A DNA stretch of 64,000 nucleotides from Chrysomallon squamiferum (Eukaryota > Animalia > Mollusca): contig CM022674.1 of the NCBI GenBank assembly GCA_012295275.1, positions 12,152,001 to 12,216,000 of the forward strand, written 5' to 3'. The notes under the pieces were generated by a model, which saw nothing but the letters and a program-made list of their open reading frames with translations, searched no databases and was not told the DNA's origin. Both the position numbers and the translations under genes were made by a program. Below, in pieces: positions 1-63,821 of the stretch. Every line of letters starts with the position of its first letter. Positions within the stretch are counted from its first letter, which is position 1.

Positions 1-1410
1 CATTTTGGCAAACTCTTGTCCTTGTTATGCTCATATAGCCTTTTCCGCATAGGACGTTACAGCTGCCTTGCTTTACTGACCAGGAAGTCCATGTTCTGTA
101 CACTGCAACATTATACACACAACACACACACACACACACACACACACACACACACACACACACACACACACACGAAAAGAAAAAAACTAAGCAGTATTAC
201 AATATATCATTTTTGTCCGATCTTAAAATGCCTTTTACGTTAAGTAAAATAATATCTAGAGAAAGAAAGAAAAGAGCAGAGAGTTAACATAAACTGACTC
301 TTTTTTTCTTCATGTAATTGCTGCTTATTGTTTTCTGTTATTAATGTACCTGATGTGCACGTTTCATTAAGAGAGTTAAACAGGAGAAAGAACTCATACA
401 CAATCTTTTCTATGTTCTTCTTGTTCTTTCGACACGTACTCAGATTTTCAATATATATTTTAGCACGATAGAAGCATTTCTTTATTGCATCTAAGTTGTT
501 TCCCCTAATTAATAAATGAATAAAAACATAAATTAATTAATTAAACCATACTTTAGGATTCACGCACACACATACAAATGTATAGACAAGTACACAGACA
601 TAAAAAGATGCGTACACAGTATACATACTCACACACAGATACATACACATAAACACAAACATACATATACATATACATACAAACATAAAACACACACACA
701 AACACACACCCCCACATATACACCCATATACACACATATACACACATACACACACACGTGATTAAGGCCGAAATCAAACGTACATATGACAGAAAATATT
801 TAAAATCCTAAAATACAATTTTGCCAGTGACAGGTTTCCCACTAAAAACAGACACACGGAAAAATGATGAAAGACAAAAGGTCGGAGTGCCTCGGAGGAC
901 GTGAAGGTTATCTTTGGTCACTGACCAACCTTGTTTAACGTCGTACGCCTTCGAAGTGACTGGAAACATCCTTACACACAGATACAAACACACATGTACA
1001 CACATATACACACATACTCACACAGAAACATAGAAACACACACAGATGTGTACATATATACATATATATGTATGTGTGTGTGTGTGTGTGTGGTTGTGTG
1101 TGCAAACATGAACACAGACAAATACTTCCCATATATGCATGAATACATACTTACTTACATACTGTTCGCACTTTCATACATACATACAAACATAAAAGCA
1201 CACTATACAAAGACACACAAAAATCCACTAACGTGCATATTAATAATCTTAATGTTTCAAAAGTTTCTCCTTCTGGAATAGAACCAATTTTTCCATGTGA
1301 GGCTAAATAGACAAGTGATTCAAAAGAAAACCCGATTCCAGCTAGGCATGTGTCTAATTTTTCTTTATAAGTTTTCTTGCATTTTTCCATAGAGAGATCC
1401 GATACCTCGA
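1..1410 (-). CDS. Gene 1 (partial): 6-Cys domain + TSR module; exons A 1410-1233, B 504-350, C 102-<1 (cut by window edge); 5' exons not resolved
   Basis: GT-AG bounded exons with phases 1-2, 2-1, 1-. A=EVSDLSMEKCKKTYKEKLDTCLAGIGFSFESLVYLASHGKIGSIPEGETFETLRLLICT; B=GNNLDAIKKCFYRAKIYIENLSTCRKNKKNIEKIVYEFFLLFNSLNETCTS; C=YRTWTSWSVKQGSCNVLCGKGYMSITRTRVCQN (WxxW and CxxxCG TSR motifs). Confidence 0.8.

Positions 1411-63821: not shown

Follow-up and report, generated by a model that had tools for sequence, protein, structure and literature searches.

Four neighbouring genes in the window (the whole 64,000-nucleotide stretch of Chrysomallon squamiferum DNA analysed here) form a cluster of paralogs, all built from one common three-exon module. 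The module encodes a predicted helical domain with six cysteines (exons H1 and H2) followed by a divergent TSR exon. Short single-module genes (genes 1 to 3) stand beside one long multimodule paralog (gene 4), a layout proposed in a first-pass annotation of this DNA and upheld here. The four genes apparently represent an undescribed, lineage-restricted protein family with the layout of a receptor cluster, and we infer its function. Our main reading, to which we give a probability of about 0.5, is that this is a lineage-specific extracellular recognition family, in which the short genes would give membrane and secreted forms through use of a transmembrane (TM) exon and gene 4 would encode a single multivalent chain of at least 17 modules. 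Narrow literature searches, confined to main texts open without subscription, found no paper on such an architecture, which does not prove its absence from print.

A cluster built from one three-exon module

Self-comparison of the window (31% GC, CpG observed/expected 0.96, many microsatellites, no N) revealed a unit repeated about 17 times between 23 and 64 kb. Translated searches resolved the unit into three exon types and located diverged copies at three places leftward. These exons, H1, H2 and TSR, are the exons A, B and C of the first-pass annotation. Genes 1 and 2 lie on the minus strand and genes 3 and 4 on the plus strand, with genes 2 and 3 head to head. Base composition, GT-AG introns and TSRs together suggest an invertebrate.

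Every gene opens with a short phase-1 signal exon, and the signal peptide is completed by the first H1 exon. Together H1, H2 and TSR make a phase-1 symmetric module that encodes 168 residues, 12 of them cysteines. The intron phases of the three exons (1->2, 2->1 and 1->1) are the same in genes 2 to 4 and in the part of gene 1 that lies inside the window. H1 is 163 nt long in all 16 internal gene 4 copies. The exon sizes noted at first pass also hold. Genes 2 and 3 and 14 of the 17 gene 4 copies have an H2 of 149 nt (155 nt in gene 1), and gene 3 shares a TSR of 195 nt with 13 of the 16 gene 4 copies (144 nt in gene 2). Cysteines occupy positions 5, 16, 53, 64, 78 and 101 of the 103-residue H1+H2 domain in all 18 frame-intact copies, the deviations being a shift of the last two by one residue in one module and of the last by two residues in gene 1.

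Within this framework genes 1 to 3 are highly diverged, as had been claimed. Their helical domains are 33% (gene 1), 39% (gene 2) and 27% (gene 3) identical to those of the gene 4 modules and 26-29% identical to each other, an overall range of 26-39% with phases, sizes and cysteine spacing retained. The homology nevertheless lies beyond chance. Profiles built from the gene 4 exons alone and run against the 763 peptides of positions 1-23600 recovered genes 1 to 3 at E values of 1e-5 to 1e-17 in eight of nine comparisons, while the best reversed-sequence controls gave E values of 0.077-0.5. The trees of the modules are star-like with one or two supported forks each, and we claim no order of duplication. 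A comparison of the H1 and H2 profiles with each other gave no internal repeat (probability 0.4%).

Gene 1 (minus strand) has a predicted first exon for the signal peptide at 2529-2553, which runs from ATG to GT, ends in phase 1 and joins H1 in frame. Its H1 exon (199 nt, 1233-1431; E 5.9e-13) is bounded by AG and GT with the expected phases. The H2 exon (155 nt, 350-504) gave a profile E of 0.14, which is not significant; it has AG/GT borders, phase 2->1 and its three cysteines. The TSR exon (1-102; E 5.6e-8) runs off the window.

Gene 2 (minus strand) comprises a signal peptide exon predicted from sequence (14612-14642), H1 (187 nt, 13384-13570; E 1.2e-17), H2 (149 nt, 12910-13058; E 1.1e-12) and a shortened TSR exon with two cysteines (144 nt, 12309-12452; E 2.6e-11). 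Gene 3 (plus strand) likewise has a signal peptide exon predicted from sequence (15543-15564), followed by H1 (196 nt, 16313-16508; E 2.5e-13), H2 (149 nt, 16970-17118; E 3.1e-5) and TSR (195 nt, 17711-17905; E 4.6e-16).

Several other repeats lie among the short genes. Between genes 1 and 2 there is a patchy duplicated block (2688-3724 versus 6759-7968; longest piece about 74% identical), and a gene 2 intron contains an old 40-nt tandem (11092-11870). An intron of gene 3 carries, at 17326-17366 on the plus strand, 41 nt of the gene 2 H1 exon (13527-13487) at 95% identity, which suggests recent exchange between these head-to-head genes. The 3' end of gene 3 is duplicated (20121-20461 versus 20583-20873, 67% identity), and a second candidate last exon of this gene lies near 20469.

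The TSR exons are, by their sequence, divergent members of the TSR superfamily. Their profile matches thrombospondin-1 chains (E 1.6e-5), and the Pfam TSP_1 family is weakly matched by 15 of 18 members (best E 0.023), single exons falling below the Pfam cut-off. Among the 13 intact gene 4 TSR exons, six cysteines are found in 11 and both CxxTCG and WxxW in all 13. None has WxxWxxW or RxRxC, the third tryptophan and the RxR motif being absent. A word-index search with the gene 3 TSR exon yielded two candidates, neither a real homologue.

The helical domain has no relative detectable by sequence in the large protein collections searched with the H1 profile. Folded singly from alignments of the window's own copies, H1 is predicted to form three helices and H2 two (pLDDT 83 and 84), with no strand. 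Pfam scans gave no meaningful match for any H1 or H2 member, and a sequence search of the PDB returned one chance match for each (E 0.77 for H1, 0.55 for H2). Word-index searches with the H1 alignment found no relative among 7990 longer and 23 near-length candidates, nor did HMMER find a true relative of the H1 profile among 1.84 billion representative proteins. HMMER returned two matches, both to helicase-associated repeat proteins; these were rejected, since the matches accumulate over 18-residue repeats and the cysteines are missing. The one match of a metagenome scan (locus L001) was also rejected, being an off-frame match of 21 residues on a bacterial contig of 54% GC with no H2 or TSR. 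In the ESM Atlas the gene 3 H1 had no usable match, and the gene 4 H1 matched three unnamed clusters of 52-57 aa at 0.92-0.93 with low recognition, which we regard as weak leads. Foldseek with the half-domain models gave no match. The best structural matches (Z 3.2, rmsd 2.8 over 51 aligned residues; Z 6.4, rmsd 1.4 over 48) are generic helices, so that neither a known nor a new fold is demonstrated.

The gene 4 array

Gene 4 (plus strand) begins with a single-copy signal peptide exon at 21848-21884. Module 1 (23271-25627) has an H1 exon of 184 nt that includes the rest of the signal peptide, followed by H2 and TSR. The frame is intact in modules 2 to 4 (26706-33664), module 6 (37473-39203), modules 9 to 11 (46477-51928) and modules 13 and 14 (53940-58001, the H2 exon of module 13 being one codon short). 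Small indels occur in module 5 (34051-37080; +2 nt near 37038 in TSR), modules 7 and 8 (39606-46106; -1 nt near 42330 in H2 and -1 nt near 46010 in TSR), module 12 (52251-53596; +1 nt near 52883 in H2) and module 15 (58404-59969; +1 nt near 59823 in TSR). Module 16 and the H1 and H2 exons of module 17 (61035-63821) complete the visible part of the gene, which runs off the window. There are thus at least 17 modules and 50 module exons in the window, all 50 with GT-AG borders, and the 45 frame-intact exons have no in-frame stop. Read as one chain, the product would exceed 2,800 residues and continue past the window.

Division of the array into separate genes was considered and rejected. There is one signal exon and one promoter region, and a search within the array for homologues of the signal, partial-TSR and TM exons gave none. 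The acceptor used by internal H1 exons pre-exists as an AG within the first H1 exon of gene 4, which would explain how the remainder of the signal peptide was lost from the duplicated modules. Exon order, the single signal exon and this shifted acceptor together show that gene 4 grew by intragenic tandem duplication of the exon triple. Its modules are 47-96% identical, and the best matches vary by exon (H2 of modules 1 and 9, 96%; H1 of modules 3 and 4, 96%; TSR of modules 7 and 13, 94%), a pattern that would fit unequal crossing-over or conversion at the scale of exons. Among these modules TSR is better conserved (79% identity) than the helical domain (64-67%).

The gene 4 modules are under purifying selection. 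Pairwise dN/dS is 0.50 for H1, 0.47 for H2 and 0.38 for TSR, the values for modules 8 to 17 are 0.52, 0.43 and 0.36, respectively, and pN/pS is 0.58, 0.56 and 0.44 (bootstrap intervals below 1). Comparisons between the modules gave no sign of diversifying selection, the best 8-codon window reaching 1.13.

Five of the 50 exons carry frameshifting indels of 1-2 nt, the first in module 5, and gene 4 is known here from the assembly. Both facts would suit a gene that is truly broken, whether as a recent pseudogene, as a null haplotype or by ending at module 5, in which case no 17-module protein would be made. We consider this unlikely. Most of the indels coincide with or adjoin runs of A or G, and dN/dS does not differ between the parts of the gene upstream and downstream of the first indel. 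Moreover, neutral decay should have brought 1.2-4.1 nonsense or splice-site changes, and none is present (probability of none 0.29-0.016, for 3-10 substitutions per indel). Putative assembly errors are the likelier source of the five indels.

By phase, each gene 4 H1 could be joined to any H2 further along, and the omission of a whole module leaves the frame unchanged. This would permit a new recognition system on an undescribed, predicted helical fold, in which the array is spliced into chimeric binding domains and chains of various lengths that may bypass the frameshifted exons, and the short paralogs serve as membrane and soluble receptor pairs with a one-exon switch. We consider such a system improbable.

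The gene 4 introns hold further repeats. An inverted, broken H2 copy lies at 24285-24382 (minus strand), and a 57-nt tandem of 13 copies with 99% identity at 60155-60893. The long intron of module 7 has two inverted repeats, 260-310 nt in length (40095-40926 and 40972-41976; 83% and 88%), that are possibly transposon ends. After the first TSR exon there is an insert of higher GC (25636-26345), absent from the introns of other modules, that looks like a mobile-element remnant.

Predicted transmembrane exons and the gene 3 transcript

Beyond the module, the first-pass annotation had given genes 2 and 3 a partial TSR exon, a TM exon ending in phase 2 and a basic tail. The partial TSR exon and the TM exon were recovered in both genes; a basic stretch after the TM segment was found in gene 3. 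The partial TSR exons (gene 2, 150 nt, 10870-11019; gene 3, 156 nt, 18342-18497) are 50% identical over 30 aa (E 1e-7). The predicted TM exon of gene 2 (94 nt, phase 1->2, 10201-10294) has a KD19 of 2.47 and splice scores near the median of the module exons. That of gene 3 (97 nt, phase 1->2, 18825-18921) has a KD19 of 3.45 and strong splice sites.

The predicted gene 2 tail spans 9711 to 4438 and consists of phase-2 symmetric micro-exons (9711-9673, 9202-9185, 5324-5286, 5147-5109, 5011-4973 and possibly 4470-4438). These are 18-39 nt long, have near-identical splice flanks and spread over 5 kb. All are open in the TM frame; five micro-exons stay open in that frame, and the frame produced by skipping the TM exon stops in the first. 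In gene 3 a micro-exon of 33 nt (19540-19572) follows the TM exon, and one 33-nt micro-exon of gene 2 resembles it in size and flanks. The predicted last coding exon of gene 3 (19974-20130) is open for 51 codons in the TM frame, which include an SxYxxV motif, and has an early stop in the skip frame. Gene 3 would therefore have a tail of 62 residues starting with four arginines in the TM frame and about 20 residues in the skip frame, in which its micro-exon is acidic instead of basic. The predicted product is about 258 aa with the skip (last junction inferred) and 334 aa with the TM exon.

Evidence from RNA was available for gene 3. We compared positions 18335-18935 (601 bases) with two RNA and two DNA runs, four of the 11 listed. 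Word shares on 12200-20200, to which we give no weight, were 0.15 for RNA run X8 and 0.06 for RNA run X9, and X9 gave no cover on the partial TSR or TM exon. Run X8 yielded one contig (725 nt, depth 6.5) that covers the partial TSR exon exactly, from end to end. At its upstream loose end the contig carries the last 30 bases of the gene 3 TSR exon, before a shared AG; at its loose end downstream it continues into the micro-exon at 19540, of which it holds the first 30 nt. The contig confirms the junction of TSR to partial TSR and joins the partial TSR directly to the micro-exon, passing unbroken across the TM exon. The form of gene 3 seen in RNA is therefore secreted, with the TM exon skipped, a call that rests on the bridging contig and not on zero RNA depth over the TM exon. 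A TM-containing transcript was not seen in this single informative contig from one run, and the junctions of the TM exon are to that extent unsupported, in one sample.

This contig supports the view that the products of the short genes are secreted only and that their TM exons are defunct relics, or else T-rich intron sequence that is hydrophobic by chance. The GC content of the gene 3 TM exon is 31%, and DNA rich in T translates into hydrophobic residues; in addition, tblastn gives no match between the two TM exons. Against this view, the gene 2 TM exon is 45% GC, and contigs drop rare variants. Both TM exons have splice scores within the range of the module exons, they occupy the matching place with the matching 1->2 phase in two genes, and the tails behind them are open only in the TM frame. 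With cut-offs set at the candidates' own scores, which is circular, only these two TM-like segments appear on both strands. With looser cut-offs there are seven TM-like places in 128 kb, five of them able to end in phase 2, three of which are background. By arithmetic from these three, about 0.025 chance TM-like exons are expected per 1-kb intron, an estimate limited by splice score matrices that were trained on paralogous sites. Strong splice sites, the same place and phase in two genes and open tails make it unlikely that the TM exons arose by chance, and the secreted-only view is in our judgement quite improbable. A membrane isoform, in which the TM exon is used, probably exists, and both soluble and membrane isoforms are likely to be made.

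The introns before both TM exons share 100-150 nt of a low-copy, TGACGTCA-rich element (18586-18781 and 10632-10787), a third copy of which lies near 4.2 kb (4210-4381).

The description of these genes as signalling membrane receptors therefore stands in part. Sequence favours the TM exons, and the sole gene 3 contig skips one of them. As to signalling, the gene 3 tail has one SxYxxV, an extended ITIM-like motif, and no strict ITIM; the same motif arises in 5% of shuffled tails. The predicted gene 2 tail has no tyrosine signalling motif.

The runs compared also give a view of polymorphism. Across the 601 bases there are two differences, both silent, one synonymous (in runs X1 and X8) and one intronic (in run X2). 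The two exons in this interval (253 nt) show no amino-acid difference among contigs, which collapse alleles.

Proposed function and comparison with known systems

Recognition of cells, gametes or microbes is our best guess for the function of the family. Ligand binding would fall to the variable, predicted-helical domain with its six cysteines, and TSR, which is better conserved, may form a stalk or a glycan-binding spacer. When the TM exon is included, the predicted products of genes 2 and 3 are type I membrane proteins, about 320-335 aa long and ending in charged tails. Without the TM exon the frame would shift and the protein would end within a few residues, gene 3 giving its soluble form. 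That form may compete for, or opsonise, the same ligand as the membrane form, and the long chain of gene 4 would bind by avidity. Several results weigh against recognition: no positive selection is seen, the short interval of gene 3 compared shows no polymorphism beyond two silent differences, the ITIM-like motif also turns up in 5% of shuffled tails, and the TSRs are divergent, missing both the third tryptophan and RxR.

Tandem TSR-containing proteins are commonly matrix proteins, and the family may instead be structural or adhesive, with gene 4 as a secreted scaffold of a matrix, coat or glue and the short genes supplying its soluble subunits and anchoring it to cells. Such a role is in keeping with purifying selection and the lack of any positively selected stretch, with the 1-4 N-glycosylation sequons per module, with the mostly net basic charge of the modules and with the low variation in the 601 bases of gene 3. 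On the other hand, the helical domains of genes 1 to 3 are just 26-29% identical mutually, suggesting different partners, and the predicted multi-exon cytoplasmic tails exceed the needs of a bare anchor. We regard this role as possible but less probable than recognition.

If the recognition function holds, the locus would provide a new binding scaffold, on a small disulfide-rich domain with no detected relative, and a compact case of a receptor gene that became a giant repeat protein. Its products would come in three valencies, as a soluble monomer, a predicted membrane monomer and a 17-mer or longer. If the locus encodes only a matrix protein, the domain family would still be undescribed but of narrower interest.

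The likeness to allorecognition, immune or gamete-recognition loci drawn at first pass is limited to layout. The family shares no ligand-binding domain with these systems, its modules show no diversifying selection between them, and the polymorphism expected from the comparison does not appear in the interval of gene 3 compared. Recognition systems of invertebrates, as outlined in part of one account, recurrently form lineage-specific clusters with no genes common between phyla (PMC12582321). The Alr genes of Hydractinia are described in the portion of their report used here as clustered recognition receptors with secreted splice forms (10.1101/2022.03.25.485889), and TSR proteins of sea slugs and cnidarians, rhamnospondin included, have been proposed or shown to act in recognition of symbionts or microbes, according to the sections cited (PMC7663992, PMC5446238). 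By their predicted domains, the four genes belong to none of EBR1, Alr/Fester or the sponge aggregation factors as defined by the domains of those families.

Gene 4 resembles EBR1, the sea urchin egg bindin receptor, which in the part of its description drawn on here is likewise a very long secreted tandem of a partner domain with TSP1, whose repeated sets of exons make assembly difficult (PMC13672419). However, the EBR1 partner is CUB, a beta sandwich, whereas the domain here is predicted to be all-helical and has no Pfam CUB match (PMC13672419). EBR1 also has an ADAMTS-like metalloprotease at its N-terminus (PMC13672419); gene 4 has no protease exon ahead of module 1, its signal peptide passing in frame directly into H1. 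Identity is 97-100% among the species-specific repeats of EBR1 and 47-96% among the modules of gene 4 (PMC13672419).

The short genes are closer to Alr and to Fester/FcoR of Botryllus, which the cited sections present as clustered, lineage-restricted single-pass receptors (10.1101/2022.03.25.485889, PMC12582321). Alr has secreted isoforms made by splicing (10.1101/2022.03.25.485889), comparable to the skip form seen here beside a predicted TM form, and Fester shares spliced tails and exchange between paralogs (PMC12582321). In contrast, Alr and Fester are of the Ig superfamily with several tyrosine motifs and are extremely polymorphic, whereas the present genes have predicted helical and TSR domains, one doubtful motif and, in 253 nt of gene 3, no amino-acid difference (10.1101/2022.03.25.485889, PMC12582321). 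Unlike Alr and Fester, as far as these sections describe them, the present cluster has a giant repeat paralog (10.1101/2022.03.25.485889, PMC12582321).

The aggregation factors AqAFA-E of the sponge Amphimedon are similarly a tight cluster of paralogs with varying numbers of a three-exon domain, in the part of their account cited (PMC5400394). They carry Calx-beta, VWA/VWD and Wreath domains, none of which was matched in Pfam by the module exons here, and 154 of their 155 introns are in phase 1, whereas one intron in three is in phase 2 in every module of the present family (PMC5400394).

The sea slug and cnidarian proteins, with TSR+TM and TSR-only members, combine TSR-bearing secreted and membrane forms as the short genes appear to do (PMC7663992, PMC5446238). 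Those described in the sections cited consist of TSR runs or of TSRs with known partners, and have fuller WxxWxxW and RxR motifs (PMC7663992, PMC5446238). The alternation of a TSR with an unrecognised, predicted-helical domain, found in none of the proteins described there, distinguishes the present family from them (PMC7663992, PMC5446238).
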